Part shown: one piece after another, positions 1 to 20,936 of the stretch
How positions within the stretch are numbered: the stretch's first letter is position 1
How the letters are laid out: every line of letters begins with the position of its first letter
From: an uncultured Bacteroidales bacterium
GTDB lineage: Bacteria > Bacteroidota > Bacteroidia > Bacteroidales > Muribaculaceae
DNA: 64,000 nt
Direction: 5' to 3'
Assembly: GCA_902776435.1 (NCBI GenBank)
Contig: CACYQB010000005.1
Span: 35,234-99,233 of the forward strand
Position numbers and translations under genes: made by a program
Notes under the pieces: model-generated
The model's database searches: none
Seen by the model: the letters and a program-made list of their open reading frames with translations, nothing else
What the model was told of the DNA's origin: nothing

Positions 1-1187
1 CAACCGTGGTTAAATGACGAAATCTGGTTATTCTCGACGAGGATGTTGGTCACATCCTGGCAGAAGAACACACCAGCGCCGCGCACGCCATTGCCCGTCA
101 TCGTGTTGCCCGAGATGATGGCATCGGCAAAGACGGTGCCCATGTGCACGCCGTGCATAGCACAGTTCTCGATGGTACAGTCCTTGACATAAAGCCCACC
201 CTCGCCCTGGTCGCTGATGCCATCGAAGGAGGAGTTCATGATCTTGCAGCGCTGAACGATGTGATTGTAGGAGTGCTTGTCATAGGAAATACCATTGACC
301 TGGCTGGTGCCGTAAGCATCAAAGTGGATGCAGCCGTTGGCCCACTCCATCGGTTCATAGGTATAGCCGCTATAAGAAGGTCCGTTCGTCTGACGATTGC
401 CATCGAGGCAGATGTCATGGATATAGACATTGATGCACTCGTCCTGGAACGACCAGGAGCGCAGCAACGGGAATGATGTGGAAAGGAAAGTTCCTGCCGC
501 ATGGCGATAGACGACACCATGCTTCTCGCTGTCATAGGCGCTCTTGAACTTGATTTCATATTTGCCTTGAGAGACGGGAACCTCGTTAATCTCGGCGATT
601 TCGCCGTAGGAGCAGTAACGCGCCCTAGCGTTGGAGGGATCAAAGGGGTTGGTCGAATAAGAGATGTAGCAGTGGTCACCCACATGGTAGCCGCTGATGC
701 CATCGACCTTGATCGTGATGGTGTGATCCTCATCGTTGTTATAGACGCCCGTATTGACGGCATCGGTGAGTTTGTGCCAAGCAGCGGGAAACTTCTTGAG
801 CACAGAGTTGTTTCCGTCACCATAGATTTCCATACCGCTCTTGATGGTGAGCGGGCGGCGAATCATGTAGGTCCCTGAAGGGAAATATATGGCAAGATGA
901 CGCTCGGCAGCAGCGGCAAAAAGGCGTTCCAGAGCCTCGGTATCATCGTTAACGCCGTCGCCAACAGCGCCATAGTCACGGGCCGACAGGTAACCATTAT
1001 ACCAAGTGGCCGTTCCCGTAGAGCCATCGCCAGACAGCAGAAAGTCAATCAAGGCGGTCACGTCCTTAATCGTAGCCACTCCATCACCGTTCACGTCAGC
1101 AAACACGCCCTGGGCTTGGCAGGGCACAAACGACATTGCCAGCATCACCAGGATGCTTGACAACTTAAATTTCAATCCTCTTTTCAT
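1..1187 (-). CDS. Secreted right-handed beta-helix protein (pectate lyase-3/GH55-like N-terminus) with a single N-terminal dockerin-like repeat; 3' end runs off the window
   Basis: Not in the ORF track. Manual translation from ATG 1187 is open to position 1: MKRGLKFKLSSILVMLAMSFVPCQA (signal peptide), DVNGDGVATIKDVTALIDFLLSG (dockerin-like), SARDYGAVGDGVNDDTEAL...IYFPSGTYMI (pectate_lyase_3-type motif), then beta-helix-like repeats. Confidence 0.8.
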   Translation of the reverse strand, partial: MKRGLKFKLSSILVMLAMSFVPCQAQGVFADVNGDGVATIKDVTALIDFLLSGDGSTGTATWYNGYLSARDYGAVGDGVNDDTEALERLFAAAAERHLAIYFPSGTYMIRRPLTIKSGMEIYGDGNNSVLKKFPAAWHKLTDAVNTGVYNNDEDHTITIKVDGISGYHVGDHCYISYSTNPFDPSNARARYCSYGEIAEINEVPVSQGKYEIKFKSAYDSEKHGVVYRHAAGTFLSTSFPLLRSWSFQDECINVYIHDICLDGNRQTNGPSYSGYTYEPMEWANGCIHFDAYGTSQVNGISYDKHSYNHIVQRCKIMNSSFDGISDQGEGGLYVKDCTIENCAMHGVHMGTVFADAIISGNTMTGNGVRGAGVFFCQDVTNILVENNQISSFNHG

Positions 1188-1222
1188 ATCCGTTGGAATT
1201 TAATGATTTGTAATGTTTCTTA

Positions 1223-3322
1223 TTAACTGATAAGACCCCAATTGGTCTGTTTGTCAAAGAGATCGCGGATGTGCAAGGCCATCTTGCGGCCCCAAGTTGA
1301 TTCCATCTCGGGGTCGTCGTGAAGGTAATCCTCGGCAGCGTTACGTGCCATCTGGATAATCTGGCCATCCTGAGCGAGATTGGCAATGTGCAGGTTGAAA
1401 GCGATGCCGCTCTGCTGGGTTCCTTCCATATCGCCGGGGCCACGCAGCTTCATGTCCTCCTCGGCGACGACAAAGCCGTCGTTGGTCTGAGTCATCACCT
1501 GCAAGCGGTGACGTGTATCACGGCCCAGGTCGCTGCGCGCCATGAGGATGCAGTAACTCTGATCGGCCCCACGCCCTACCCTGCCCCTCAACTGGTGCAA
1601 CTGCGAGAGGCCGAAGCGCTCGGCATCCTCGATGACCATGACAGAGGCATTGGGGACATTGACACCCACTTCGATAACAGTGGTTGCCACGAGGATGTGC
1701 GCCCTACCCGTGGCAAAGAGCATCATCTGGTGGTCCTTCTCGGCGGGTTTCATGCGACCATGCACCATGGCCACGTTGTAATGCGGAAAAACATCCTTGA
1801 CCTGCTCAAAGCCCTGCTCCAGGGCATGAAGATCGAGTTTCTCATTCTCCTCGATGAGGGGATATACAATATAGGCCTGACGACCTTGCTTGAGTTGTGA
1901 GCCCACGAACTGGTACATCTTGAAGCGGTCAGGCTCGTGACGCAGCACAGTGGTAACGGGCTTGCGGCCTGGTGGCAACTCGTCGATGATGGACACATCA
2001 AGGTCGCCATAGACCGTCATGGCCAAGGTGCGCGGGATGGGGGTTGCCGTCATCACCAACACATGGGGCGGCGCTACTCGGTTCTTGCTCCACAAGCGAG
2101 CACGCTGGGCCACACCGAAGCGGTGCTGCTCGTCGATGATGGCAAGTCCCAGGTTACGGAACTGCACCGTGTCCTCGATGAGGGCATGAGTGCCAATGAG
2201 AATCTGCAAGTCGCCGTTTATCAGAGCCTCATGGATGGCATTGCGTTCCCGCTTGCGCATCGAGCCTGTCAATAACGCCGCCTTCACTCCGATAGCATCG
2301 GCCAGCGGTTTGATGGTCTCCAAGTGCTGTCCCGCAAGAATCTCGGTAGGCGCCATGATGCAGGCTTGATAACCGTTGTCGAGAGCAATCAGCGCTGTCA
2401 TGAAAGCCACAATCGTCTTTCCGCTGCCCACGTCGCCTTGCAAGAGACGGTTCATCTGCTTGCCACTGCCCATGTCCTGCCGCATCTCGCGAATGACGCG
2501 TTTCTGCGCCCCCGTCAGCGGGAATTGCAGGATATTGTTATAGAAGTCATGGAAATAGGCGCCCACGCGGCTGAACACATGTCCCACCAAGCGGCGGCTA
2601 CTACCTTTTATATAATGCAGGATATTGAGTTCCAGGAAGAACAGTTCCTCGAACTTGAGACGGAACTGTGCACGCTGCAAGGCCTGCTGGTCGCTGGGCA
2701 AATGGATGTTGTGCAGCGCCTCGGCCAACGGCATGAGGTGGTAGCGCTGCATCAATTCTGGTGGCAATGTCTCATCGATTAGTTTCACAGCAGGCGTTTC
2801 AAGCAGGGAGACGACAAGCTTGTGAATGGCCCGCGAAGTGAAGGAGCGATTGCGCAACACCTCGGTCAGGTTATACACGCCAGTGAGGCCCTGTGCCACA
2901 TTCTCGGTCGTGACCACATCCACCTCGGGATGAACGATGTTCATGTGGTTGTTGAACATCGACGGCTTGCCGAAAAGGAGGTATTGGGTGTTGGTGTTAT
3001 AGGTCTTCTGTATCGAGGCCACGCGATTGAACCACACGACTTCGATAGTTCCCGTGCCATCGGAAAACAACGCTTGCAGACGTCGTTTGCGGCCCTCACC
3101 CACCGTGTTAAAAGTCAAGAAACGTCCCCGCAGTTGCACCGCAGCCTCGTCCCCCCTCAGTTCGTTGATATGGTTAATGACACTACGGTCGATGTAACGG
3201 AAGGGGAAGTAATAGAGCAGGTCGTAATAAGAACTGATGTTCAGTTCCTTGCTCAACAGCTCGGCCCGTTTAGGTCCCACACCGTGCAAGTACTGTATGT
3301 CAGTATGGCGCAGGTCAGGCAT
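1223..3322 (-). CDS. recG: ATP-dependent DNA helicase RecG
   Basis: 699 aa; LLQGDVGSGKT Walker A, IIDEQHRFG, MTATPIPRTL, QLHQLRGRVGRG, RGPGD motifs. Confidence 0.97.
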   Translation of the reverse strand: MPDLRHTDIQYLHGVGPKRAELLSKELNISSYYDLLYYFPFRYIDRSVINHINELRGDEAAVQLRGRFLTFNTVGEGRKRRLQALFSDGTGTIEVVWFNRVASIQKTYNTNTQYLLFGKPSMFNNHMNIVHPEVDVVTTENVAQGLTGVYNLTEVLRNRSFTSRAIHKLVVSLLETPAVKLIDETLPPELMQRYHLMPLAEALHNIHLPSDQQALQRAQFRLKFEELFFLELNILHYIKGSSRRLVGHVFSRVGAYFHDFYNNILQFPLTGAQKRVIREMRQDMGSGKQMNRLLQGDVGSGKTIVAFMTALIALDNGYQACIMAPTEILAGQHLETIKPLADAIGVKAALLTGSMRKRERNAIHEALINGDLQILIGTHALIEDTVQFRNLGLAIIDEQHRFGVAQRARLWSKNRVAPPHVLVMTATPIPRTLAMTVYGDLDVSIIDELPPGRKPVTTVLRHEPDRFKMYQFVGSQLKQGRQAYIVYPLIEENEKLDLHALEQGFEQVKDVFPHYNVAMVHGRMKPAEKDHQMMLFATGRAHILVATTVIEVGVNVPNASVMVIEDAERFGLSQLHQLRGRVGRGADQSYCILMARSDLGRDTRHRLQVMTQTNDGFVVAEEDMKLRGPGDMEGTQQSGIAFNLHIANLAQDGQIIQMARNAAEDYLHDDPEMESTWGRKMALHIRDLFDKQTNWGLIS

Positions 3323-3989
3323 CGTGATTCAGCAGATATTCGGCAAGTGCCAAGTCCATGGGACGGGTAATCTTGAGATTATGTGGTTCTCCCTCAACAA
3401 GGGTAACGACATGTCCCGCACGTTCCACCACCGAAGCGTCGTCGGTAAAGGTGGGCTCATAGGGCAACGAGTAAGCGTCCATCAACAATTTGGCCTCAAA
3501 TGCCTGAGGCGTCTGAACCGCACGCAACGACGAACGGTCAAGCGCATGACTGATGTCACCCGTGACCTGTCGTACAGAATCGTTAAGCATGACCACCGGA
3601 ATGGCAGCGCCATCATGACGCGCAGCTTCCAGGACGCGTTCAATCAATGCGGTTGAAGCCAGCGGCCGAACGCCGTCATGCACGGCAATCACGTCAACGT
3701 CCTCAATGGGACCGATGCTGTCCAGGGCATTCTTCACGCTGTGCCAACGGGTATCTCCGCCCGGCACCACTCGATGAGGCATAGTAAAGGCATACTTGTG
3801 ACACAAGTCCTTCCACAAGGTCATTTGGTCGACGGGCAGGGTCACAATGATATCAAAAGATCCGTCCCCGAAGGCCTCGATCGTCCGCATGAGTATGGGC
3901 TTGCCGCCCAATTCAAGGAATTGCTTGGGCAACTGGGCGCCAAAGCGAGTGCCACTACCACCTGCCACTATGATTGCTATCGTTCTCAT
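3315..3989 (-). CDS. ispD: 2-C-methyl-D-erythritol 4-phosphate cytidylyltransferase
   Basis: IIVAGGSGTRFG..LPKQF, VAVHDGVRP, AVQTPQAF, TDDAS, NLKITRPMD; start moved to MRTIA (ATG 3989). Confidence 0.95.
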   Translation of the reverse strand: MRTIAIIVAGGSGTRFGAQLPKQFLELGGKPILMRTIEAFGDGSFDIIVTLPVDQMTLWKDLCHKYAFTMPHRVVPGGDTRWHSVKNALDSIGPIEDVDVIAVHDGVRPLASTALIERVLEAARHDGAAIPVVMLNDSVRQVTGDISHALDRSSLRAVQTPQAFEAKLLMDAYSLPYEPTFTDDASVVERAGHVVTLVEGEPHNLKITRPMDLALAEYLLNHDA

Positions 3990-4125
3990 CTTGCCATTGT
4001 CGTTTAGTGACCACAAAGTTAAGGAAAAATTAAAAAGGAACCTTAAGCCTCGGCTTAAAATTCCTTTTTAGGTTTCAAATAGGTAAAATTTCTAAGGTAA
4101 AAAAGATTGTTTCAGGTTTATGGCG

Positions 4126-4133
4126 CAAAAGTA
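4126..4133 (-). promoter_or_regulatory. Bacteroidetes -7 promoter element (TACTTTTG) for ispD-recG
   Basis: Matches TAnnTTTG about 140 nt upstream of the ispD start. Confidence 0.5.
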
Positions 4134-4253
4134 TAGCCATTTTTTGAACCATGCACACTGATTTTTTATGTTATAAAACATATTTTTCGAAAAAACCTTG
4201 AGAATTCTACCCTATCTCACTGAAAATCAGCAATGCAAACGATTGCGATTTTT

Positions 4254-5015
4254 TCACTCTTTTTCAAAGTACTTGAGGGAGAACTGACCGTCGGGAGTGA
4301 GGACGACATAGGAATTGAGCGAAATCCATTCCCCCAGCAGGATGACGGGCGGCATGGTTTCGCCGGGATAGATACGAGCGATGTGGATGTGACCGAAGAC
4401 ATAGGCTTCGACCTCGGGATGAAGGTGATGGTGACCACTCGCATACTCCACAAGGCGGGTGGCAGCACGCTCCGAGATATCCCGCAGTTGTTCCGGCGAA
4501 CGGCTAGTGCGGTTCTCGCTTGACCATCCTGTGGCAATGGGATAGGTCCAGCGGGGATGGATGGAAGCATATAGCCACTGGCAGACCTTATTATAGAAGC
4601 ACCAACGGGTGAAACGATACATGGCGGGTTGTTCTCCCACGTCATCGCCGTGGGCGATCAGAATCTGCTTATTGCCGGCCTTCACTATCGTGTGGCCATA
4701 GAGCACCGTCATATTGAGCTGGTCGCGCAGGTAATCAAACAGCCACACATCATGGTTACCGGTTACCCACGTGAGTTTGATGCCCGCGTCAGATAGTTCG
4801 GCAAGTTTGCCGAAGAAACGGATATATCCGCGCGGCACCACATACTTGTACTCGTACCAGTAGTCGAGGATATCGCCCAACAAGAAGAGCTCGGCAGCAT
4901 CGTCCCGGATGGAGTCCAGGAATCGGCACACCCGTCGCTCCCGCTCCAGCGGGTCGCTCATGTACTTGGCGCCCAGGTGCAGGTCGGATATAAAATAGGT
5001 GTTCTTGCCAGCCAT
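4254..5015 (-). CDS. lpxH: UDP-2,3-diacylglucosamine diphosphatase
   Basis: YFISDLHLG, LGDILDYW, TGNHD, AHGD, VFGHIH metallophosphoesterase motifs. Confidence 0.9.
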   Translation of the reverse strand: MAGKNTYFISDLHLGAKYMSDPLERERRVCRFLDSIRDDAAELFLLGDILDYWYEYKYVVPRGYIRFFGKLAELSDAGIKLTWVTGNHDVWLFDYLRDQLNMTVLYGHTIVKAGNKQILIAHGDDVGEQPAMYRFTRWCFYNKVCQWLYASIHPRWTYPIATGWSSENRTSRSPEQLRDISERAATRLVEYASGHHHLHPEVEAYVFGHIHIARIYPGETMPPVILLGEWISLNSYVVLTPDGQFSLKYFEKE

Positions 5016-5027
5016 ATATTAAGTCAC

Positions 5028-5055
5028 CCTATAGCCTATAACCTAAAGCCTTAAC
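5028..5055 (-). repeat. Degenerate 7-mer tandem repeat (CCTATAG/CCTATAA/CCTAAAG on +), same family as 13589
   Basis: cctatag cctataa cctaaag ccttaac between DUF59 and lpxH. Confidence 0.65.
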
Positions 5056-5375
5056 TATAACATGCCCAACTCGAGCTTGGCCTCCTCGGTCATCATGCGA
5101 GGGTCCCACTCGGGCTCAAACACCAGGTTGACCGTGGCGCTAGTCACACCGTCAACGCTCTCAACCTTCTGCCTCACGTCCTCGAAGATGAAGTCAGCGA
5201 TTGGGCAGTTGGGCGCTGTGAGCGTCATGTCGATGTCCACATGTCCGTCGTCGTTGAGGTCAATTTTATAGATGAGACCCAGACTGTAAACGTCAACAGG
5301 CAACTCGGGGTCATAGACCGTCTTGAGCATCTTGATGATGTCTTCCTCGATTTTCAATTTCTGTTCTTGTTCCAT
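5055..5375 (-). CDS. DUF59 / SUF-system Fe-S cluster assembly protein
   Basis: LKTVYDPELPVDVYSLGLIY, MTLTAPNCP, LVFEPEWDPRMMTEEAKLELG; start set at MEQEQ. Confidence 0.9.
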   Translation of the reverse strand: MEQEQKLKIEEDIIKMLKTVYDPELPVDVYSLGLIYKIDLNDDGHVDIDMTLTAPNCPIADFIFEDVRQKVESVDGVTSATVNLVFEPEWDPRMMTEEAKLELGML

Positions 5376-5384
5376 ATCTGGGTG

Positions 5385-5392
5385 CAAAATTA
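5385..5392 (-). promoter_or_regulatory. Bacteroidetes -7 promoter element (TAATTTTG) for DUF59-lpxH
   Basis: TAnnTTTG immediately upstream of the start codon. Confidence 0.55.
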
Positions 5393-5708
5393 ATTAAAAA
5401 CTCACAAAACGCACCTATATTTGACTCCAAAAAGCCTCGCGGCAGGTAAAATCAAAGAAATCATCACTTTAGTCAAAGCATCGCCGAAAGAGGTCAAATC
5501 AAAAAAAAATCATAAAAAATGCTGAATATTAGCGCTTAAATAAAAAAAAATGCCGATATTTGCAGTCGCAAAATCGCCAGGGGCTCCACTATGAGCGCTT
5601 TTTCGCTGTCTCCACAACATCGGAAAATGCGCTTAACTTCTTGACGAATAAGCAGTTATTAAGACATTTAATTTTTAATTAACAGTAACAATAAAATTTA
5701 GTAAAGCA

Positions 5709-5981
5709 ATGACTAAAGCAGAAATCGTAAGAGAGATTGCCAACGAAACCGGTCTTGACAAGGCTTCGGTTTTGGAAACTGTAGAGAAGTTCATGGACAC
5801 GGTAAAGGATTCTTTGGCTAAAGGCGAGAACGTTTACCTGCGTGGTTTTGGCAGTTTCATCGTGAAAACCCGTTCCCAGAAGACCGCCCGCAATATCAGC
5901 AAGAACACTGTCATCATTATCCCCGAGCACAAGATCCCGGCTTTCAAGCCCGCTAAGGTGTTCATGGAGCAGGTGAAGTAA
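5709..5981 (+). CDS. hup: DNA-binding protein HU
   Basis: 90 aa; MTKAEIV, GENVYLRGFGSFIVKTR, KTARN, IPAFKP. Confidence 0.93.
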   Translation: MTKAEIVREIANETGLDKASVLETVEKFMDTVKDSLAKGENVYLRGFGSFIVKTRSQKTARNISKNTVIIIPEHKIPAFKPAKVFMEQVK

Positions 5982-6049
5982 TCTGACTTACTGCGTATTA
6001 TCCAGATATCATACAATTATTATCAATTAACTCATAATTTTTTACGACA

Positions 6050-6142
6050 ATGCCAAACGGAAAGAAACGTAAAGGCCACAAGATGGCAACGCACAAGCGT
6101 AAAAAAAGACTGCGCAAGAATCGTCACAAAAACAAGAAGTAA
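6050..6142 (+). CDS. Small basic ribosomal protein bS22 (AURKAIP1/COX24-like, Bacteroidetes type)
   Basis: 30-aa ORF below the track cutoff: MPNGKKRKGHKMATHKRKKRLRKNRHKNKK; AT-rich translation initiation region upstream; matches the recalled Bacteroidetes bS22 sequence pattern. Confidence 0.88.
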   Translation: MPNGKKRKGHKMATHKRKKRLRKNRHKNKK

Positions 6143-6176
6143 TCGCGTAGTCAATCTGTGACGACTGTGAAATAGC

Positions 6177-6420
6177 GGGAACAAACGAATTGGCACGCCT
6201 GATGCGCATCTCTATGAACTAAACGGCAGTCCGCTGCCTACCATAGCTACCGAGGGGTCCGCGTCACGTCAATTGGTTTGTTCCTGTCTTGCTTTTAGAG
6301 AGTAGGCTGTCGTTGAGGCAGCCGGTACGCCAGACTGTAGCGTTCCACTGCTCTTATCCTCGCACTACCTGGCGGCACGTGTCCAGCGGGACACACCGCA
6401 ATAGCCGCCCGAGCCGTGCT
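6177..6420 (+). ncRNA. Candidate structured RNA / 5' leader of rng
   Basis: 17 of 18 pairs (two G-U) between 6177-6194 and 6268-6285, plus hairpins ggcagtccgctgcc, ggctgtc/ggcagcc, gtgtcc/ggacac, ggcggc/gccgcc. Confidence 0.45.
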
Positions 6421-6490
6421 GTTTTATATAATACATTATTAATTATATATAAACCATCAAATTTTTTATAGTATTCATCCATCTTCTGCG

Positions 6491-8137
6491 ATGAAAAGTG
6501 AATTAGTAGTTGACGTCACGCCCCGGGACATGACGACGGCGCTGCTTGAAGACGGCCGCCTCGTGTCCTTGCAAAGGGAGACCAGAGATGCCTCCTATGC
6601 CGTGGGCAACCTCTACCTTGCCAAGGTAAAGAAGCTGATGCCAGGACTGAATGCCGCGTTTGTCAACGTGGGCCACTCCAAGGACGCCTTCCTTCATTAC
6701 CTTGATCTGGGTTCACAATTCAACACTTTTTCTCAATACATCAAGACGGTACGCGAAAATCCCAATAAGCGGCCAACGAGCATCAGCAAGATCAAGAATC
6801 AGTCCGACACCAACAAACATGGCACCGTCAGCGACGTGCTCACCCAGGGTCAGGAACTACTCGTTCAAATCGCCAAAGAGCCCATTTCCACTAAGGGGCC
6901 GCGATTAACCACAGAAATCACCTTCACAGGACGTTTTCTGGTGCTCACCCCGTTCAACGACCGCATCTCGGTATCCCAGAAAATCAAGGACCACGCCGAG
7001 AAGACCCGCCTGAGGCGCCTGATCGAGAGCATGAAGCCGAAGAACTTCGGCATCATCGTCAGGACATCGGCCGAGAACAAGAAAGCCGCCGAGCTCAACG
7101 CCGAGCTCCGCACCTTGCTAAAAGCCTGGGACGACGCGATAGCCAAAGTCCAGCAGGCGACCCCTCCCACCCTCGTCTATGAGGAAGAAAGCCGTGCCGT
7201 CGGTGAGATCCGAGACATCTTCAGTCCCGAGTTCGAGAGCATTCAAGTCAATAATGCCGATGTATATGAGCAAATCCATGACTACGTGAACCTTATCGCC
7301 CCCGACCGCAGTGATATCGTGAAGCTGTACAGCGACGACATGCCGATATTTGACAAGTTCGGCATCACCAAGCAGATCAAGTCGTCGTTTGGCAAGACCG
7401 TATCCTTCAAGTCGGGCGCATACATAATCGTAGAAAGCACCGAAGCGCTTCACGTGATAGACGTGAATTCAGGCAACCGCTCGCGCACGAGCACCGATCA
7501 GGAGAGCAACGCATTGAACGTTAACCTGCTCGCCGCCGACGAGATTGCCCGCCAGTTGCGCTTGAGGGACATGGGCGGAATCATCGTGATCGACTTCATC
7601 GACATGGCCAAGTCCGAACACCGCCAGGAACTGTACCAACACATGCGCGAAGTGATGCAAAAAGACCGTGCGCGTCACAACATCCTGCCGCTGAGCAAGT
7701 TCGGCTTGATGCAGATTACCCGCCAGCGCGTGAGGCCAGCCCTCGATATTGCCACTGCCGAGACATGCCCGTCATGCGGCGGAACCGGCGAAGTGCAACC
7801 CTCACTGCTTTTTACCGACAAGTTGAAAGACAAGATTGATTACCTTGTCCACACGTTGAACGTGAACAACTTCATTATGTATGTCCATCCGTTTGTCGAT
7901 GCCTACCTCAAGAAAGGTCTCATGAGTGAGTACTGGAAATGGCGCAGGGAATTCAAGCGAAAATTCCGTATCATGCCCGACCAGTCACTCAACTACCTGG
8001 AATATAAGGTATTCGACAAAGACCGTAACGAAATTGACCTTAAAGAGGAAAAAGACACCAGCAGCAGCGAGACGAGCAAGAAAGAACGCCGCTCCAAGAA
8101 ACATGCTGCCGAAACCGAAGACGACAGCCAACAGTGA
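6491..8137 (+). CDS. rng: Ribonuclease E/G family (Rne/Rng)
   Basis: S1 domain (AAFVNVG..KDAFLH), TEALHVIDVNSG, LRLRDMGGIIVIDFIDM, CPSCGGTG Zn-link. Confidence 0.95.
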   Translation: MKSELVVDVTPRDMTTALLEDGRLVSLQRETRDASYAVGNLYLAKVKKLMPGLNAAFVNVGHSKDAFLHYLDLGSQFNTFSQYIKTVRENPNKRPTSISKIKNQSDTNKHGTVSDVLTQGQELLVQIAKEPISTKGPRLTTEITFTGRFLVLTPFNDRISVSQKIKDHAEKTRLRRLIESMKPKNFGIIVRTSAENKKAAELNAELRTLLKAWDDAIAKVQQATPPTLVYEEESRAVGEIRDIFSPEFESIQVNNADVYEQIHDYVNLIAPDRSDIVKLYSDDMPIFDKFGITKQIKSSFGKTVSFKSGAYIIVESTEALHVIDVNSGNRSRTSTDQESNALNVNLLAADEIARQLRLRDMGGIIVIDFIDMAKSEHRQELYQHMREVMQKDRARHNILPLSKFGLMQITRQRVRPALDIATAETCPSCGGTGEVQPSLLFTDKLKDKIDYLVHTLNVNNFIMYVHPFVDAYLKKGLMSEYWKWRREFKRKFRIMPDQSLNYLEYKVFDKDRNEIDLKEEKDTSSSETSKKERRSKKHAAETEDDSQQ

Positions 8138-8166
8138 ACAAGCATCACTTGAAGGCCACAGACATC

Positions 8167-8208
8167 AAGGCCGCCCTGCACAATACCTGCAAGGCGGCCT
8201 TTTATTTT
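8167..8208 (+). terminator. Intrinsic terminator after rng
   Basis: aaggccgcc...ggcggcctt stem followed by ttatttt. Confidence 0.75.
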
Positions 8209-8303
8209 CCCATAGATTGTGACCATTCAGCTTAAGAACCACACGTTAATAACTTGAGTGCGTTAAATATTGTGAAACCCATGTGTTTTTCATATTTATA
8301 AAT

Positions 8304-8311
8304 TATATTTG
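8304..8311 (+). promoter_or_regulatory. Bacteroidetes -7 promoter element (TATATTTG) for rocD-pruA
   Basis: TAnnTTTG about 50 nt upstream of ATG 8364. Confidence 0.6.
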
Positions 8312-8363
8312 CAACCAGAATTTCACTTTAACATTAACCATTTAATTACAATCAACTTAACCA

Positions 8364-9632: not shown

Positions 9633-9639
9633 ATCTTTA

Positions 9640-9677: not shown

Positions 9678-9697
9678 GTTTAAAGTTTAGAGTTTAG
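9677..9697 (+). repeat. 7-mer tandem repeat (AGTTTAR)x3
   Basis: agtttaa agtttag agtttag; same unit at 25201-25228. Confidence 0.7.
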
Positions 9698-11457: not shown

Positions 11458-11489
11458 GCCGATAGCTACTAACTTTTAGCAATATTAAC

Positions 11490-11525
11490 AACGAGGGTGC
11501 GTCAAGTGATTTGGCCACCCTCGTT
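11490..11525 (+). terminator. Hairpin / probable terminator after pruA
   Basis: aacgagggtg...caccctcgtt stem, short T run. Confidence 0.55.
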
Positions 11526-11553
11526 TAGAATAAAACCCGACAAATCAAGCGTT

Positions 11554-12375: not shown

Positions 12376-12497
12376 CCCTGTTTTGTTTTCTCAATTCCGA
12401 GCAAAGCCGTTAGCTGGTTTATTGGATATACTCACAGTATTGTAATTATTTCTTATTGATTGGGTTTAAAAAGCGGTTCTCTATCAACTATTTTCAT

Positions 12498-12505
12498 TAA
12501 CTTTG
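12498..12505 (+). promoter_or_regulatory. Bacteroidetes -7 promoter element (TAACTTTG) for rlmN
   Basis: TAnnTTTG about 30 nt upstream of ATG 12538. Confidence 0.6.
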
Positions 12506-12537
12506 CAGATTGAACAAACATTTAATCTTCTAGAGAC

Positions 12538-13587: not shown

Positions 13588-13588
13588 T

Positions 13589-13646
13589 TTTAGGCTTTAG
13601 GTTTTAGGCTTTAGGTAATAAAAAACGAGATTTTTAGGTTTTAGGT
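13589..13646 (+). repeat. 7-mer tandem repeat (TTTAGGY)x4, then x2
   Basis: tttaggc tttaggt tttaggc tttaggt at 13589-13616; tttaggt x2 at 13633-13646. Confidence 0.85.
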
Positions 13647-13691
13647 CTGACTACCGTAAACGGACAACTGATAACTGTCAATAAGAAAACT

Positions 13692-15509
13692 ATGAAAAAG
13701 ATGATCCGATTCTCCACGATGCTGGCAGTGGCAATTATTGCCGTGCAGTCCGCGCTTGCAGCAGAGCCAGTCAATTACTATAACAATGCCTTGGGCAAGA
13801 GTGACGAGGCCCTGATGTCCGCATTGAGGAGCATCATTCGCTCACACAAGGAGGTATCTTACAGCAGTGGCCTGCTTAATGCATTTGCCATTGCCGATGT
13901 TGACAATCAAGGCTATATCATCGACATCTATAGCAACTGCCGCTATAGGCCGAGCGACAACGGTTCGTCGGCCTCCCACGTGGGCGAGGGCTATAACCGT
14001 GAGCACAGTTTTCCCCGCAGTTGGTTCGGCGGAGAGGTGTCTCCGATGAACACCGACGTGTTCCACATCTACCCCACCGACATCCGCGTGAACAGTCAAC
14101 GAGGTAACAACCCCTACGGCGTGTGCGCTAACGGCACGCGCTTGTCCTATGGCAGCTATGTCGCCAAGGGCAAATTGGGCAACAGCACCTATCCTGGCTA
14201 CTCAGGTGTTGTGTTTGAGCCCGACGACGAGTATAAGGGAGACCTTGCACGCACCTATTTCTACATGGCGACCTGCTACAAGAACGAACTTCCCTCATGG
14301 CCCGGCAGTGCTCAACTCGACTATGCCAGGAACAAGTATAAAGCCTTCTCGACCTGGACCATCAACATGCTGATGGAATGGACCCGCCTGGATCCCGTCA
14401 GCGAGAAGGAAATCAAGCGCAACGAGGCCGTCTATGGCATTCAGGGCAACCGCAACCCCTTTATCGACCATCCCGAGTTGGCCGAATTCATCTGGGGCAA
14501 CATGCAGGGCAAGCCCTGGAATGGCAGTGGAGAAGTGATTCCCGCATCCATTACCTCTCCCGCCAACGGTTCCGTCTTTGACATGGGCGTGACCGTTGAG
14601 GGCACTGAAATGCATCAGACCATTATCGTCAAGGGCGAAGGCCTGAGCAGAGGCCTGACGCTGTCGATGAGCGATAACGAAAACTTCTACGTGAGCGCCA
14701 ACACCTTCAGCGCTATGGAAGTCAATACAGGCACCAGTTTCGACATCAGCTTTACCGCCGACAACGAGGGCACCTATGAGAACACAGTGACCTTGAGCAG
14801 CAGCGAGGTGACCACCACATTCACCGTCATCGCCACCGCTCAACAGGGCGGTACGCCGCCACCTCCTGTCGTGCTGGGCGACAGCATCGTGGAGGATTGG
14901 GAAGGCTGCACGACCGGCGGTTACTGGACTGACGTCATCGAGGGTAACGCTTGGCTGTGGGAATTTGAAAATGCCGGCATCTGGAATGACAACATGAGTC
15001 ATGGAGAACTGTCTTGCCGCTTGGGTAAGAGCAATAACAGCGCCATTACCATGGCCGAGGATGTGCACGGCGGCACAAGTGCCATTGCCTTCTGGGCTGC
15101 CAGCTTCGGCAACGACAGTGACGCCACATTGCGCGTAGACTTCAGCATCGACAAGGGTTCAACGTGGTTCGAATTGGGCAGTTTCACTGTCACCAGAGGC
15201 ATCTTGCAACAGATCATCATGGATGTACCCCTGAAGGATACTGCCCGTTTCCGCATCGTGCAGACATCTGGTTCACGTGTCAATATCGATGACATCACTA
15301 TCTATGGCCCCACTGATCCGTCACCCATTCTGCCTGGTGATGTAAATGGTGATGGCGAGGTGAATATCGCCGATGTCAATATCGTCATCGACCTGATTCT
15401 GGGCGGCACAGCCGATGAGGGTATCCTCAAGCGAGCAGACGTAAACGGTGATGGAGAAATCGGCATTGCCGACTCCAATTTCATCATCGACATCATCCTC
15501 GGATTATAA
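13692..15509 (+). CDS. Secreted endonuclease I family nuclease with Ig-like and jelly-roll-like domains and a C-terminal dockerin
   Basis: Signal peptide; YNREHSFPRSWFGG, DVFHIYPTD, KGDLARTYFYM, GNRNPFIDHPE; ends GDVNGDGEVNIAD...ADVNGDGEIGIAD. Confidence 0.88.
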   Translation: MKKMIRFSTMLAVAIIAVQSALAAEPVNYYNNALGKSDEALMSALRSIIRSHKEVSYSSGLLNAFAIADVDNQGYIIDIYSNCRYRPSDNGSSASHVGEGYNREHSFPRSWFGGEVSPMNTDVFHIYPTDIRVNSQRGNNPYGVCANGTRLSYGSYVAKGKLGNSTYPGYSGVVFEPDDEYKGDLARTYFYMATCYKNELPSWPGSAQLDYARNKYKAFSTWTINMLMEWTRLDPVSEKEIKRNEAVYGIQGNRNPFIDHPELAEFIWGNMQGKPWNGSGEVIPASITSPANGSVFDMGVTVEGTEMHQTIIVKGEGLSRGLTLSMSDNENFYVSANTFSAMEVNTGTSFDISFTADNEGTYENTVTLSSSEVTTTFTVIATAQQGGTPPPPVVLGDSIVEDWEGCTTGGYWTDVIEGNAWLWEFENAGIWNDNMSHGELSCRLGKSNNSAITMAEDVHGGTSAIAFWAASFGNDSDATLRVDFSIDKGSTWFELGSFTVTRGILQQIIMDVPLKDTARFRIVQTSGSRVNIDDITIYGPTDPSPILPGDVNGDGEVNIADVNIVIDLILGGTADEGILKRADVNGDGEIGIADSNFIIDIILGL

Positions 15510-15553
15510 CAGATCATTTAATCTTTCATAACACATTAACACGACAACCATTC

Positions 15554-17884
15554 ATGAGAAGAATCGCATTAACCCTCGCCGTGACGGCGTTGGCGCTGGC
15601 TGTGTATGCCAAAGACCCAAAGCCGTGTCCCAGCGACTACTATTCTAACGCGCTGAACCTGAGCGGAGAATCCCTGCTCACGGCATTGCACAACATCATC
15701 ACGAGCCACACCAACATCGGCTATGACGGCCTGTGGGCCGCCTATGCCGACACTGACACCGATTCCCAGGGTTACTACATCGACATGTACAGCAACTACG
15801 ACAAGTACACCTATAGTAACAAGTGTGGCAATTACAGTCAAATCGGTGACTGCATTAACCGCGAACACAGTGTACCCAAGAGTTGGTGGGGCGGAAGCCA
15901 GCAACCTCAATACAGCGACATTTTCAATATCGTACCCACCGACGGATACGTCAACAACCAGCGTTCCAACAACCCTTACGGTGTCTGTGAGGGAGGCGTT
16001 CGCCTGACTAACGGCCAGTATGTCGCCAAGGGGCGCAAGGGAGCCAGTACTCATGCTGGATATTCAGGCACCGTGTTTGAGCCTGACGACGAGTACAAAG
16101 GCGATTTCGCCCGTGCCTATTTCTACATGGCAACCTGCTACAACAACGTCATCAGCAACTGGACGCAGTCGGGAGGCAATGTCTTCTTTGCGGGCAACAG
16201 CTATCCCGTATTCACGACCTATGCCATCAACTTGCTGCTGGAATGGCACCGTCTGGACCCGGTGAGTGAAAAAGAGACCACCCGCAACTGCTATGCCCAC
16301 GCTTGGCAAGGGAACCGTAACCCCTATATCGACCACCCCGAGCTGGCCGAGTACATCTGGGGAGATATGCAAGGACAGGTATGGACAGGAGACGGTTCCG
16401 TAGTCACTTGGCCCATGTTGACACAGCCTTCCGCTGGGACTACCATCAATGTGGGCACCATAGCTTTGGACGGCTCGAGCGCGAGCAGCCAAGTTAACGT
16501 CAAGGGTGTCAATCTGACGGAAGCACTCAGCCTCAGTGTGAGCGGAACAGGATTCAGCGTCTCACCCACTACCCTGACTGCCAGCGACGTCAATAGCGGC
16601 ACGACAGTGACCGTGACCTATAACGGTAGCGACCAGAGTGCTACAGGCACATTGACCTTGATGAGCAGCGAGGTGAACCGCACCGTATCCCTCACTGCCG
16701 GCAAGGAACAGCCGGGCGATGATCCCATCACACCCACGGGAGATTACAGCATTGAGACCTGGGAAGGTTGTGCCTCTGGCGGTTACTGGACCAGCGAGGT
16801 ACAAGGTGCCGCCTTCAAGTGGTATTTCACTGACGCAGGCCTCTGGGCACAGAACAATGACCACTGGAATGGCGATATCGGCTGCCGTTTCGGCAAGAAC
16901 AGCAATTCCTCGATTGCCATGCGACAGGATGTTGCAGGCACATCGGGCCTCTCGTTCTATGCCGCCACCTATGGCACCACCGATGCCGACGCTACCCTAC
17001 AGGTGCTCTATAGTACCGATGGCGGCAGCAACTGGACTATGTTTAAGGAGATTGCCCTCACCCGCGAGTTTGTTAAATACACCTATAGCCTGGATGTCAC
17101 CGACAACGTTCGCTTCAAGTTCCAACAGACTGCCGGCAAACGCCTCAATATCGACGATATCGCCATCTATGCCCCTGTGCAAGAGCAATCAGAGCCCAAG
17201 GTATACTTCGGGGAGACCATTGTGGCCATGCAGGCAGTTCAGGATGGTGAGTCCAGCATCAGCGAAGTTACTGTAATCACCGATGACAATGACGAACCCG
17301 TCATCGTGACTGTGGACGGCAACTTTGAGTTGAGCCTTGATCAGCAATCATGGGGAAACAGTCTGACACTGGATGCTAGCGGTGAGACATTCTACGTCCG
17401 CTTGGCCAGCACCGCAACCGCTGGGGAGTATGAGGGCGTGATCACGGCCACCGCCAGTGAAGTAACAGCTTATGCCGAAATTGAGGGCACTGTCTCCCTT
17501 CCCGAGGTTCGCATCGGCGATGTAAACAGGGACGGCTTCGTTACCATCTCAGACGTGACAACGCTCATCGACTACCTGCTGGGCGGTGATGAGTCCATGA
17601 TTGACCTTCTGGCTGCCGATGTGAATCAAAACGAGAGTGTTACCATCGCCGATGTGACAGCACTCATCGACCTGTTGTTAAGCGGCAATAGCGCTGCCAT
17701 GTGGAATGCATTGCCCACCCAGGGCGGCATCCGCATCAACAACCCCATAGGCGAGACGCTTGAAGTCTATAACCTCGATGCCGATGTAGTGGCAAGGGTA
17801 CAAACCTCAGCCTCACTTTCGCTGCCTGCGGGCATCTACATGGTCACCAGCGACACCCGCTCCCGCAAAGTCATCGTCAGATAA
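15554..17884 (+). CDS. Paralogous secreted endonuclease I nuclease with Ig-like domains, dockerin and T9SS-type C-terminal domain
   Basis: INREHSVPKSWWGG, DIFNIVPTD, KGDFARAYFYM, GNRNPYIDHPE; dockerin 17516-17690; tail LEVYNLDA...LPAGIYMV...RKVIVR. Confidence 0.88.
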   Translation: MRRIALTLAVTALALAVYAKDPKPCPSDYYSNALNLSGESLLTALHNIITSHTNIGYDGLWAAYADTDTDSQGYYIDMYSNYDKYTYSNKCGNYSQIGDCINREHSVPKSWWGGSQQPQYSDIFNIVPTDGYVNNQRSNNPYGVCEGGVRLTNGQYVAKGRKGASTHAGYSGTVFEPDDEYKGDFARAYFYMATCYNNVISNWTQSGGNVFFAGNSYPVFTTYAINLLLEWHRLDPVSEKETTRNCYAHAWQGNRNPYIDHPELAEYIWGDMQGQVWTGDGSVVTWPMLTQPSAGTTINVGTIALDGSSASSQVNVKGVNLTEALSLSVSGTGFSVSPTTLTASDVNSGTTVTVTYNGSDQSATGTLTLMSSEVNRTVSLTAGKEQPGDDPITPTGDYSIETWEGCASGGYWTSEVQGAAFKWYFTDAGLWAQNNDHWNGDIGCRFGKNSNSSIAMRQDVAGTSGLSFYAATYGTTDADATLQVLYSTDGGSNWTMFKEIALTREFVKYTYSLDVTDNVRFKFQQTAGKRLNIDDIAIYAPVQEQSEPKVYFGETIVAMQAVQDGESSISEVTVITDDNDEPVIVTVDGNFELSLDQQSWGNSLTLDASGETFYVRLASTATAGEYEGVITATASEVTAYAEIEGTVSLPEVRIGDVNRDGFVTISDVTTLIDYLLGGDESMIDLLAADVNQNESVTIADVTALIDLLLSGNSAAMWNALPTQGGIRINNPIGETLEVYNLDADVVARVQTSASLSLPAGIYMVTSDTRSRKVIVR

Positions 17885-17906
17885 AGACCACAATCAGCAC
17901 TTATAG

Positions 17907-17944
17907 CAAGCAGGACTGATGCCATGTCGCATCAGTCCTGCTTG
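17907..17944. terminator. Bidirectional terminator-like hairpin between convergent genes
   Basis: caagcaggactgatgc / gcatcagtcctgcttg perfect 16-bp stem. Confidence 0.75.
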
Positions 17945-17981
17945 ATTCATTCTATGGTCATTTTGAAATGCTCGTCACAAA

Positions 17982-20936
17982 TCACCAATTACCACTCAGC
18001 AAGAAGTCAATCAGTGCGGTCACGTCGTTAATCCTCACCTGATTGTCTTCGTTGCAGTCGGCTGCACCAACAATGATGTTTGAGTCGTCCCCACTCAACA
18101 GGTAGTCAATGAGCGCCGTTACGTCATTGATTCTCACTTGACCGTCGCCATTCACGTCACCACGAACGAATTGTGGCTTTTCACTGAAGTAACCTGGGTT
18201 ATCGGGGCCACCGTCAATATGGGCGTAGGTCGCGTCCATGTGGTAGGGATCATAGGTTGTTCCCATGCCGCCAACAAGACTCGCGCAACCGGCAAACATA
18301 GCGGGATGTGTTGTCACATTCGACATATCCCATCCTTCTCCAACATAGACAGTAACCAGCTTGGTACAGCCTTGGAACATAGTCGTTGTTCTCGTTACCT
18401 GATGAGTATCGAAGCTTGTCAAGTCCAGTTGAGTCAAGTTACCGCACTGAAAGAACATAGACCAAAGACTTGTCACACGCGACGTATTGAAATTGGACAC
18501 ATCAACACTTGACAGATTGGTGCATAAGGCAAAGAGCCATTCCATGTTTTCTCCAGTTACATTTGCGGTGTTGAAACTGCTTAGGTCAAGACTCTCCAGC
18601 ATAACGCATCCCTGGAACATACGGGTCATATTCTCCAGATTGTCAGTATTGAAATGGCTCAGGTCTAAATGCTGCAGTTTAAAACAGCTTTGGAACATAG
18701 CAGTCATATCGGTCACCTCACTCGTGTTCAAGTTTTCAATACCAACGACTGATTCTAAGTTCTCCATGCCGTAAAACCAGTAACGAGTGCTTGTGGGTCG
18801 CGCGTCAACAAACGACTCATCAATGTCAACCTTATCCACATAAGCATAGCTGTTGTCGGTGTACCATCCTGGATTGTTGTCACCCTCGTTCAAGTAGTAT
18901 GTTGTCTCAGTGTGCAATTCCTTAACGGCATCGTAATAGAACGTGAGCGTCTTACCATCATCAGAGAGGAGCGCATACGGCTCTTTACTGCTGGGGTCAT
19001 AAATAAACTTGAAGTCCTTCCACACCTCGGCTGCCCCATAAATGCCTTTAGTACCATCTGGAACACAAAGTACTTGATTAGCACGATTGGGGAATGCTTC
19101 GGCAGGAACAAAAATGGGAGTTGCCCAATTGACAGTCACCGTCGCCAGATTGTTACAATCAGCAAAGGCACGGCTCTGTATAGAAGTTACCGATGATGGG
19201 ATATTGATTGTTGTAAGCGCAGTGCCTTCAAAAGCGCTCTCTCCAATTAATAGCAAACCATTGGGAAGAGGAATATCGTTCAGTGCAGAGCAATTCTTAA
19301 ACGAGTTATTGATAATGTATTTGACACCAGCCCCTAACGTGACGGTGCTTAATGAAGTGCAACCCTCAAATCCACCAACCGATACCACACTACCAGGAAT
19401 CGAGATTGCAGCTAATGACATACAATCTTTAAAAGCGCCTTCTTGAATGCCAGACACCTTGTTTCCCAAAGTCACGGAGCTAAGGCTTGTGCAGCCCTCA
19501 AAAGTATTGTTCTTGATGGAGGCAGCATTGTAGTTGATTGAAGTCAGTCCCGTACAGCCCTTGAAAGCACTCTTCTCAACTGTTGTATTATTAGCTATCT
19601 CAATTGAAGGCAAACTCGTGCAGCCCTCAAAAGCACTTTCTCCAATTGATGTCAAATTAGAGAAACGATTGACGGAAGCCAAAGCTGAACATCCCTCAAA
19701 TGCACTATTGCCAATAGTTTTCACTGATGTCGGGAAAGCTATAGAAGAGAGGCTTGTACATCCCTGGAAAGCGTTGTTGCCGATGGCGGTAATCTGCTCA
19801 GGCAAGGTGATGGCCGACAGGCTACTGCAACCAGCAAAAGTATTGTCAGGAATCTCACGTAATCCTGTGAAATGTTGCAATTCATTAAAGGACGTGATCT
19901 GCAATCCTTGGAAACTCAGTCCTAGGTCATTGACCATATAAGCCTCCAGCTGGTCGAGATATCCATCTCCATCAGCATCCCAATTAGCTACACAGATAGC
20001 CTCTACTTGAGGGTCGGCAAATAATAATCTGTTCGGTTCCTTGATCTCCTTAAATTTATTCCACTCATCGGCTGATGCATAACTAGATAATGAGCCTGCA
20101 GGGACATAGAGAATCGCTTGACGACAGAATGGGAAAGTTCTGGAGTCAACTTCTGGAGGTGTCACCATTCCGGCAATAACCGTTGTAATATCCGTTATAC
20201 CTTCAAAAGCACCCGAGCCAATGCTGGAAATGCCGCTTGGAAGAGTAATAGATGTCAAATTAACACACTGCCTAAAAGCAAAGTCACCGATACTCGTGAC
20301 ACTTGATGGGATATGGATAGATGCTATCTTACTCGTACTGACAAAATGATTCGGTATATGCTCAACCTCATTACCAATAATCACCTCACAATCACTTGCA
20401 AGGATAAAAGAGCCACAGTATAAGAATGTGTTCTGAATCAAATATGCCTGCACATTGCCCTCGGCATGCCTTGCATTATAATAAAGAGTCTTAATATAAG
20501 AATTTGGTTGAGCGAAATGATCATCTGAGACAGCACTATTAGCGATGTATACCACACTTTCGGGTATAGTTAAAGTATGTATCGCACAATTACCAAAGGC
20601 TTGACTTCCAATGGATGTAATTGTATTGGGAAGTGTGACTGAAGTTACTTTAGTCCCGTTATAAAATGCCTTTTCGCCGATACCTGTTACAGTATAAGTG
20701 ACTCCATTGATGTCAACAGTGCTTGGGATTACATAGTCCCCAGAAAAATACATAGCATAAGAAATTGCTCCAGCATGTGTAACCTCCAAAGTATGAGCGT
20801 CAGAATTCTTAATGTTATAATAGATTCTTACACCATCATCATTCAAAGCAGATACATCATAAGCACAAGCAGCGATGCTTGATATTAGAGCTATCAGTAC
20901 CAGCAGAGCTTGTTTATAAAAATTTTTTGTTCTCAT
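17982..20936 (-). CDS. BspA-type leucine-rich-repeat surface protein with DUF285-like repeats and a C-terminal dockerin
   Basis: Signal peptide; many xTLPxxITxIGxxAFxGCTSL repeats; LDLSxFNTxNVTxMxxMFQxC repeats; ends GDVNGDGQVRINDVTALIDYLL...ADCNEDNQVRINDVTALIDFLLSGNW. Confidence 0.88.
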   Translation of the reverse strand: MRTKNFYKQALLVLIALISSIAACAYDVSALNDDGVRIYYNIKNSDAHTLEVTHAGAISYAMYFSGDYVIPSTVDINGVTYTVTGIGEKAFYNGTKVTSVTLPNTITSIGSQAFGNCAIHTLTIPESVVYIANSAVSDDHFAQPNSYIKTLYYNARHAEGNVQAYLIQNTFLYCGSFILASDCEVIIGNEVEHIPNHFVSTSKIASIHIPSSVTSIGDFAFRQCVNLTSITLPSGISSIGSGAFEGITDITTVIAGMVTPPEVDSRTFPFCRQAILYVPAGSLSSYASADEWNKFKEIKEPNRLLFADPQVEAICVANWDADGDGYLDQLEAYMVNDLGLSFQGLQITSFNELQHFTGLREIPDNTFAGCSSLSAITLPEQITAIGNNAFQGCTSLSSIAFPTSVKTIGNSAFEGCSALASVNRFSNLTSIGESAFEGCTSLPSIEIANNTTVEKSAFKGCTGLTSINYNAASIKNNTFEGCTSLSSVTLGNKVSGIQEGAFKDCMSLAAISIPGSVVSVGGFEGCTSLSTVTLGAGVKYIINNSFKNCSALNDIPLPNGLLLIGESAFEGTALTTINIPSSVTSIQSRAFADCNNLATVTVNWATPIFVPAEAFPNRANQVLCVPDGTKGIYGAAEVWKDFKFIYDPSSKEPYALLSDDGKTLTFYYDAVKELHTETTYYLNEGDNNPGWYTDNSYAYVDKVDIDESFVDARPTSTRYWFYGMENLESVVGIENLNTSEVTDMTAMFQSCFKLQHLDLSHFNTDNLENMTRMFQGCVMLESLDLSSFNTANVTGENMEWLFALCTNLSSVDVSNFNTSRVTSLWSMFFQCGNLTQLDLTSFDTHQVTRTTTMFQGCTKLVTVYVGEGWDMSNVTTHPAMFAGCASLVGGMGTTYDPYHMDATYAHIDGGPDNPGYFSEKPQFVRGDVNGDGQVRINDVTALIDYLLSGDDSNIIVGAADCNEDNQVRINDVTALIDFLLSGNW

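Follow-up and report, generated by a model that had tools for sequence, protein, structure and literature searches.

Dockerin-tagged secreted proteins and divergent cohesins in a rumen Muribaculaceae genome: a probable surface-assembly system

Introduction

Cohesin–dockerin assembly is commonly viewed as a device of Gram-positive bacteria, and of archaea, that serves chiefly for fibre degradation. Here we analyse a stretch of 64,000 nucleotides (the window; positions 35,234 to 99,233 of contig CACYQB010000005.1, assembly GCA_902776435.1) from an uncultured rumen Bacteroidales bacterium of the family Muribaculaceae, in which four genes for secreted proteins carry dockerin repeats. From profile searches and structural models, we consider it likely that these genes encode cargo of a genome-wide cohesin–dockerin system for surface assembly, as large as a cellulosome, in a diderm host. 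An earlier note, made from the window sequence alone, had described a non-cellulosomal dockerin-tagged secretome and proposed an unidentified receptor, possibly basic or other than a cohesin.

Among the described systems, the cellulosome of Ruminococcus flavefaciens comprises ~220 dockerins in several groups, adaptor scaffoldins, the cell-wall-anchored ScaE and truncated group 2 dockerins; the latter, of a single repeat, still bind cohesins, and internal repeat symmetry is a feature of dockerins with a dual binding mode (PMC12270676). The type I pairs of Clostridium thermocellum include the Xyn10B dockerin with the CipA cohesin and the OlpA cohesin with the Cthe_0918 dockerin (3ul4). Outside cellulose degradation stand the GH84C/NagJ cohesin and mu-toxin dockerin of Clostridium perfringens and the Archaeoglobus fulgidus cohesin 2xdh. 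A separate device, sorting by a C-terminal domain (CTD; TIGR04183) through the type IX secretion system (T9SS), is known from Porphyromonas, Tannerella and Flavobacterium.

In the rumen, 8.8% of dockerins were attributed to Bacteroidetes by Bensoussan et al. 2016, a finding described as "not documented before"; a C10 peptidase–dockerin protein was among them, and many non-fibre functions were noted (PMC6487960). Lin et al. 2023 found dockerins prevalent in Muribaculaceae C941, "without" cohesin (PMC9863278). Searches of open-access literature gave no description of cohesins, cohesin–dockerin (Coh-Doc) cassettes or T9SS-linked scaffoldins in Muribaculaceae.

Results and discussion

Dockerin repeats in the window

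Six-frame translation of the window gave exactly seven matches to the dockerin repeat pattern, all inside the intervals where the earlier note had placed seven repeats in four secreted proteins (Table 1), and all four open reading frames (ORFs) have signal-peptide-like N-termini. The cargo had also been read correctly, as Pfam identifies Endonuclease_1 twice, leucine-rich repeats (LRR_5) with DUF285, and a pectate-lyase-like beta helix. The three two-repeat proteins match Dockerin_1 with 39.7, 42.4 and 39.1 bits (cut-off 22.9). The single repeat of the beta-helix protein is below Pfam detection and was matched by our own hidden Markov model (HMM) at residues 30–64; the gene (C5_34864_36420_-) extends beyond the window, its full ORF encoding 518 residues. 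The repeat pattern has 331 matches in the dockerin ORFs of the genome and 1 in a residue-shuffled ORF set, and chance is therefore excluded.

All seven repeats carry Ile at position 10 and Ile-Asp at positions 17–18, as had been claimed. The longer consensus proposed with them, D-V-T-A-L-I-D-x-L-L, holds for five of the seven and fails in both repeats of the first nuclease, which read D-V-N-I-V-I-D-L-I-L and D-S-N-F-I-I-D-I-I-L. The C. thermocellum contact residues cited for comparison, Ser-Thr at 10–11 and Lys-Arg at 17–18, are visible in PDB sequences from the query alignment (4fl4_A: ...KVNSTDLTLLKRYVL...) and do not occur here; they define the C. thermocellum specificity group, not the Dockerin_1 family. 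At position 14, the first nuclease has Asn in both repeats (N class), the second nuclease and the LRR protein have Thr in both (T class), and the beta-helix protein has a single Thr.

Table 1. Dockerin-bearing genes of the window, and cohesin proteins and endonuclease I paralogs of the genome (SP, signal peptide; Coh, cohesin; Doc, dockerin; Doc*, distinct dockerin class described in the text)
Feature	Location	Strand	Evidence or number
Beta-helix protein gene, pectate-lyase/rhamnogalacturonase-like, secreted, 5' part	window 3..1187	-	PF12708 E 8e-19; PF13229 E 2e-7
Single dockerin repeat (half-dockerin, T class), N-terminal, right behind the signal peptide: DVNGDGVATIKDVTALIDFLLS	window 1032..1097	-	repeat pattern
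Endonuclease I (first nuclease), secreted, C-terminal N-class dockerin	window 13692..15509	+	PF04231 E 4e-67; PF00404 E 5.6e-10, residues 548-600
Repeats of the first nuclease	window 15339-15404, 15438-15503	+	repeat pattern
Endonuclease I paralog (second nuclease), secreted, internal T-class dockerin	window 15554..17884	+	PF04231 E 5e-72; PF00404 E 8e-11, residues 655-709
Repeats of the second nuclease	window 17519-17584, 17618-17683	+	repeat pattern
Tail of the second nuclease, T9SS type A sorting-domain-like	window 17729..17878	+	TIGR04183, below family threshold
BspA-type LRR + DUF285 surface protein, C-terminal T-class dockerin	window 17982..20936	-	PF13306 E 1e-95; PF03382 E 6e-29; PF00404 E 8.7e-10, residues 926-980
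Repeats of the LRR protein	window 17994-18059, 18093-18158	-	repeat pattern
SP-Coh-Doc			~215 residues; three genes
SP-Coh-Doc-FGE	C14:15296-16696 (C14_15296)		cohesin + dockerin + FGE-sulfatase (Pfam)
LRR-(Big_2)-Coh-Doc*-Coh-tail			five genes
LRR-Doc-Coh-tail			two genes
SP-Coh-tail
LRR-Coh-Doc*
Coh-Doc*-Coh cassettes	G000 C16:29924-33550; C17:41613-45176; C25:56860-59067; C7:124046-127921; C14:12941-15181
Endonuclease I, tail only	C1:143431-145137 (C1_143431)
Endonuclease I, dockerin + tail	second window nuclease; C5:109283-111586 (C5_109283)
Endonuclease I, dockerin only	first window nuclease; C3:5796-7616 (C3_5796)

The genome-wide dockerin set

The genome, a Sodaliphilus-like metagenome-assembled genome (MAG), measures 3.45 Mb in 43 contigs and is 95% complete. 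Its ValRS, encoded in the window, shares 92–96% identity with those of rumen MAGs that bear the label Sodaliphilus sp. or are uncultured Prevotellaceae/Bacteroidales RUG bins, and 81–82% with those of Muribaculaceae-labelled MAGs. PF00404 gave more than 151 six-frame matches in this genome, and among the control genomes it also matched Bacteroides thetaiotaomicron and Methanosarcina acetivorans. The genome-wide count suggested in the earlier note was carried out with an HMM that started from the three window dockerins and was then iterated over the genome ORFs. It yielded 189 dockerin ORFs, with the dockerin at most 10 residues from the C-terminus in 145 and near the N-terminus in 17. Their combined length of 380 kb amounts to 11% of the genome. 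Of all genes, ~6% are tagged; 127 of the 189 ORFs fall in 40 stretches of at most 20 kb.

The view of a non-cellulosomal dockerin-tagged secretome in a Bacteroidales genome is borne out. The I10/I17/D18 signature is near-invariant across the genome and holds in ~90% of 313 repeats: 299 of them have I10, 291 have I17 and 277 have D18, and the Ca2+-loop positions D1, N/D3, D5 and D12 are conserved. I10 and I17 may be simple core residues. Two-repeat dockerins have Thr at position 14 of both repeats in 98 proteins and Asn in both in 43, and are mixed in none. Since this symmetry is the pattern of dual-binding-mode dockerins, the T14/T14 and N14/N14 forms suggest two specificity classes, with position 14, rather than positions 17–18, behaving like a specificity switch. 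An AlphaFold2 (AF2) model of the paralog C17_45347, with a dockerin that shares 78% identity with the one of the second window nuclease, shows the three-helix dockerin fold (helices 168–178, 188–191 and 201–212; predicted local distance difference test, pLDDT, 84–93). The closest solved dockerin by sequence is 3ul4_B (E 2.8e-6).

True single-repeat dockerins are found in ~20 proteins of the genome. In one N-terminal half-dockerin protein (C2:126440-127345), the single repeat is followed by a stretch that by eye resembles the start of an FGE domain; in two others (C29:2715-3497 and C29:7721-8482) the sequence past the repeat looks different from that of C2_126440. PorK/GldK of the T9SS has the same fold as the FGE-sulfatase domain, perhaps by coincidence.

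Identification of cohesin modules

Neither PF00963 nor our genome-derived cohesin HMM detected a cohesin within the window, in agreement with the earlier reading. In the genome, PF00963 has three matches, each in an ORF that also bears a dockerin; two of these modules score above the Pfam gathering threshold of 24.1 bits and the third scores 21.6. An HMM built from the three matches and iterated over the genome identified 18 modules in 13 ORFs (alignment A1), the other 15 modules being found with this HMM only. When the cohesin profile was compared to the PDB, the seven best matches were cohesins (5n5p, 2jh2/2ozn, 6kgc), with weak E-values of 2e-4 to 0.02; a phage Hoc protein and endonuclease I chains appeared lower in the same list.

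The AF2 model of a 216-residue SP-Coh-Doc protein (pLDDT 87.6, above 90 in the cohesin module) is a nine-strand sandwich followed by three helices. The top 50 PDB matches of this model in Foldseek are all cohesins, with target TM-scores of 0.7–0.81. First among them is 2xdh, a non-cellulosomal cohesin of A. fulgidus (E 1.5e-9, target TM-score 0.79); for 3ul4_A the score is 0.81. In the model of a Coh-Doc*-Coh-tail cassette (pLDDT 83.9), both sandwiches and the dockerin exceed 90, and the best Foldseek match is the cohesin dyad 3l8q (E 8e-12), to which both modules align. By profile and predicted fold, the 18 modules are divergent cohesins, a known class of dockerin partner.

The search for cohesin-like folds by structure prediction and Foldseek, as the earlier note had suggested, confirmed the fold of cohesin modules in the very genome for which a possibly non-cohesin receptor had been proposed, and that proposal is left without support. 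The idea of a basic receptor fares no better: the cohesin modules are acidic (pI 4.05–5.9) and the dockerins have a mean net charge of -9, with no global charge complementarity. What remains of it as a lead is a local set of residues conserved in the cohesins, R71, K72, H76 and R90 (alignment A4).

Architecture of the cohesin proteins

The cohesin proteins (Table 1) contain at most two cohesins each. The dockerin between the two cohesins of the large proteins, Doc*, forms a distinct class with GDAN..., V10, A17, no D18 and a P-x-P-F linker. In the AF2 model, the first cohesin and Doc* make up a single rigid unit with no low-confidence break, and this unit may reflect intramolecular docking or chain formation. 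In four of four cases a small Coh-Doc gene lies immediately downstream of a large Coh-Doc*-Coh gene, and the same pairs occur in many relatives. Dockerins fall into at least three classes (T14/T14, N14/N14 and Doc*, which is internal) and cohesins into two types, which suggests more than one specificity.

C-terminal tails and T9SS

CTD-like tails are present on 7 of the 13 cohesin proteins and on 2 of 176 dockerin-only proteins (Fisher p 4e-8). Type B tails occur in 12 ORFs, among them those of four cohesin proteins and of the second window nuclease, where 67 residues follow the dockerin; the chain of the first nuclease stops 2 residues past its dockerin, without a T9SS tail. Type B tails are homologous to four tails above the TIGR04183 cut-off, with which jackhmmer groups them. 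For the second nuclease, the tail scores 19.3 bits against TIGR04183 in the genome search and 20.5 bits alone (cut-off 23), with weak DUF6383 and PF18962 matches; the type B tails of the cohesin proteins reach 21.7 bits against DUF6383 (cut-off 23.7).

The type C tail, a motif of 40 residues (Y-Y-N-x-x-G-Q...G-x-N-I-V-V-T-T-Y-x-D-G-T...K-V-x-K), occurs in 27 ORFs, three of which encode cohesin proteins. No family in Pfam or NCBIfam matches it, hhalign gives a probability of 8% against type B, and its AF2 pLDDT is 35–59. The motif may be an undescribed sorting or anchoring signal. A 1473-residue LRR protein of the window (56072-60493, + strand), without a dockerin, also ends in a type C tail (…RYFDAAGAEHSEPVSGVNIIVRQMSDGSTETVKVIK).

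The genome encodes T9SS machinery (SprA 2662 bits, GldM 544 bits). The tails are concentrated on the cohesin proteins. SprA occurs throughout the family (151 of 151 genomes), and its presence does not discriminate; T9SS co-occurrence was discarded as a test. By heuristic signal assignment, ~167 of the 189 dockerin ORFs have a signal peptidase I (SPI)-like signal and neither a T9SS tail nor a lipobox. The five endonuclease I paralogs (Table 1), four of them tagged according to BLAST, span all tag states and form a natural series for tag replacement.

Cargo of the tag

Pfam scans of 127 of the 189 dockerin proteins identified LRR_5 in 33 proteins, Peptidase_C10 with Inhibitor_I69 in 18, DUF285 in 10, Peptidase_M6 in 7, CotH in 6, Peptidase_S8 in 4, Cleaved_Adhesin, FGE-sulfatase and alpha-amylase in 3 each, GH53 in 2, PAD_porph and GHL10 in 1 each, as well as DUF2436. 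Endonuclease_1 was found in 2 proteins, the window nucleases only, as the other tagged nuclease paralogs lay outside the scanned set. The cargo thus consists mainly of adhesins, proteases and nucleases, with few carbohydrate-active enzymes and no fibre-degrading set. C10 peptidases, BspA LRR proteins, Cleaved_Adhesin, DUF2436 and PAD_porph are classical T9SS cargo in Porphyromonas and Tannerella. Two other ways of sorting the cargo were abandoned: BLAST single linkage collapsed 98–130 proteins into one cluster, and a simple LRR motif count was too crude; the Pfam scans replaced both. GHL10 (glycosyl-hydrolase-like 10) paralogs occur in both states, untagged in the window (25302-26813, - strand) and dockerin-tagged at G000 C1:78595-81162 (L081:1-2568).

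Distribution across genomes

Cohesins of the A1 type are present in 34 of 36 genomes of the same genus, which we take to be the one earlier named C941. They occur in 47 of 151 genomes of the whole family (22 of 35 genera), in 1 of 24 genomes representing one each of the other Bacteroidales families, and in 19 of 301 across the whole order, in at least 14 other families. Large dockerin numbers are limited to the genus: first-look candidates per genome range from 44 to 323 there versus 4 to 39 elsewhere, except in G061, which belongs to another genus of the family. Within the genus, 37 genomes have cohesins and many dockerins, 4 have neither and none is discordant (p 1e-5, a value that ignores phylogeny). 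The four cohesin-free genomes (G009, G026, G076, G201) have 5–10 dockerin candidates and gave no match, and cohesin counts correlate with dockerin candidates with a Spearman rho of 0.67. G061 (85% complete assembly) has at least 31 dockerin matches and no A1-type cohesin at E <= 1e-8; its cohesins are either missing from the assembly or of yet another type.

In other genera the few dockerins mostly adjoin cohesins in Coh-Doc cassettes. A likely history begins with an old Coh-Doc cassette, after which the tag expanded explosively within the genus. Among metagenome proteins, the SP-Coh-Doc family forms 845 clusters at 90% identity, annotated with PF00404 only, and the Coh-Doc*-Coh cassette at least 317 clusters, named "leucine-rich repeat protein". 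The cohesin profile matches 6,377 representatives at E <= 1e-10, some with 8–14 modules, exceeding the two-cohesin maximum of this genome.

Probable assembly and alternative explanations

We therefore place the window genes, with some confidence, among the cargo of a cohesin–dockerin system. In the proposed assembly, ~190 Sec-exported proteins carry a type-I-like dockerin, mostly at the extreme C-terminus, and would be bound, presumably in a Ca2+-dependent manner, by the divergent cohesins of ~13 proteins encoded elsewhere. Since the large cohesin proteins have T9SS-like sorting tails at their C-termini, T9SS probably exports them and attaches them to the outer membrane, where they would act as anchoring scaffoldins and hold the cargo at the surface; sortase anchoring is impossible, as the host is a Gram-negative Bacteroidales bacterium. 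The small SP-Coh-Doc proteins, encoded just downstream of the large ones, would serve as adaptors. The earlier note had named a canonical cohesin scaffoldin as the finding that would make this a known system. The class of partner is indeed the known one, but the cohesin proteins are not canonical scaffoldins, having no more than two cohesins, fusions to dockerins and T9SS-like tails. The system would operate as a plug-and-socket display of the cellulosome kind. It is not a cellulosome in the strict sense, given that small number of cohesins per protein and a cargo that is not mainly plant-cell-wall-degrading.

Several observations weigh against this assembly. Dockerin proteins outnumber cohesin modules ~10:1, with no protein holding more than two. 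The tail assignment is weak, type B lying just under curated cut-offs and type C having no family match. The assembly offers no outer-membrane route to the ~167 of 189 dockerin ORFs that have neither a T9SS tail nor a lipobox. G061 combines many dockerins with no A1-type cohesin detected at the threshold given above, and the co-occurrence counts within the genus take no account of phylogeny.

In a different explanation, the dockerin is mainly a tag for export or sorting and not for assembly. It would have taken the place of the T9SS CTD in this lineage and would bring proteins across or onto the outer membrane, either through direct recognition or through periplasmic docking onto cohesin-bearing T9SS substrates that take them along through the translocon. 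The classical T9SS cargo of this genome (C10 with I69 in 18 proteins, BspA LRR in 33, Cleaved_Adhesin, DUF2436, PAD_porph) bears the dockerin in the place of the CTD, the endonuclease I paralogs range from tail only through dockerin plus tail to dockerin only, the majority of dockerin proteins have an SPI-like signal only, and the tails are retained on the cohesin proteins. However, carriers would be few relative to passengers, ordinary cellulosomal dockerins are also C-terminal as a norm, and to our knowledge there is no precedent for T9SS hitch-hiking or for a dockerin-type export signal. We regard this explanation as rather unlikely. Its hitch-hiking form, to which we give a similarly small chance, would have tail-less dockerin proteins fold in the periplasm, dock on tail-bearing cohesin carriers, pass the SprA translocon and so reach the surface; if true, it would be a third route to the Bacteroidota surface, besides lipoprotein export and the CTD.

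Binding of the dockerins to a receptor other than a cohesin, for example a basic protein or a glycan, with the cohesin-like modules unrelated to them, appears very unlikely. The tenfold excess of dockerins over cohesins, the conservation of D18 where clostridial dockerins have Arg, and the dockerins of G061 without detectable A1-type cohesins would fit such a receptor, yet cohesins are present and conserved, are fused to the same dockerin classes and share their presence and absence in the genus. No basic partner is evident either, the cohesins being acidic overall despite the four conserved basic residues mentioned above.

Dockerin-like modules with no known partner are common outside cellulosomes. 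That the modules here are merely structural Ca2+-binding EF-hand pairs or linkers, with no partner and spread by duplication of secreted-protein genes, is hardly credible: although PF00404 also matches the two control genomes and a core role is possible for I10 and I17, the tag is found on dozens of cargo families unrelated to each other, unlike the product of a few-gene duplication, keeps a strict within-domain symmetry at position 14, and both co-occurs with cohesins and is fused to them.

Comparison with described systems

The cohesin–dockerin system proposed here resembles that of R. flavefaciens in its rumen host, a similar number of dockerin proteins in several classes, Coh+Doc adaptors and single-repeat dockerins (PMC12270676), and also in the attachment, here predicted, of non-cellulosomal cargo to the cell surface. 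Unlike R. flavefaciens, the host is a Gram-negative Bacteroidales bacterium with anchoring probably by T9SS tails, proteins have at most two cohesins, the cargo is made up of adhesins, proteases and nucleases with few glycosidases, and Pfam recognizes only 3 of the 18 cohesins. With type I dockerins of C. thermocellum it shares two 22-residue Ca2+-loop/helix repeats with internal symmetry, but positions 10–11 are Ile-(Ala/Ser) and 17–18 Ile-Asp here, versus Ser-Thr and Lys-Arg there; no CBM3 scaffoldin is found here and the cargo is not cellulase-centred. The C. perfringens and A. fulgidus systems likewise operate outside cellulose degradation, and the best profile matches of the cohesins described here include that of NagJ, while 2xdh is their best fold match; those systems comprise a handful of proteins, in contrast to ~6% of genes in a diderm with T9SS. 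T9SS CTD sorting handles the same kinds of cargo, and its machinery and some CTD-like tails are present here, but most cargo ends in a dockerin without a CTD, and the tails are concentrated on cohesin proteins. The system therefore differs from those described in host envelope, in its probable T9SS anchoring and in cargo.

The cohesins found here, with their architectures and T9SS-like tails, also contrast with the report on C941 (PMC9863278), in which their absence was probably recorded because they escape standard annotation. A Gram-negative rumen genus spends ~11% of its genome on dockerin-tagged proteins, in numbers comparable to the largest cellulosomes. If binding holds, the system would offer a new model of cell-surface construction in abundant rumen Bacteroidales and a large set of orthogonal cohesin–dockerin pairs for protein engineering, and the T9SS question would become that of the exit route of ~170 tail-less proteins.

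Neighbouring genes in the window

The genes adjoining the dockerin genes in the window are housekeeping genes (RecG, IspD, RNase G, an aminotransferase, RlmN, RpiB and ValRS); the window dockerin genes are therefore a local sample of a scattered gene set and form no operon. Further along, at ~38000-52000, lies a block of low GC content (0.39–0.45 versus 0.50–0.56 elsewhere) with co-directional minus-strand genes, including one for a PglD-like hexapeptide acetyltransferase; the block is probably a surface-glycan biosynthesis locus.

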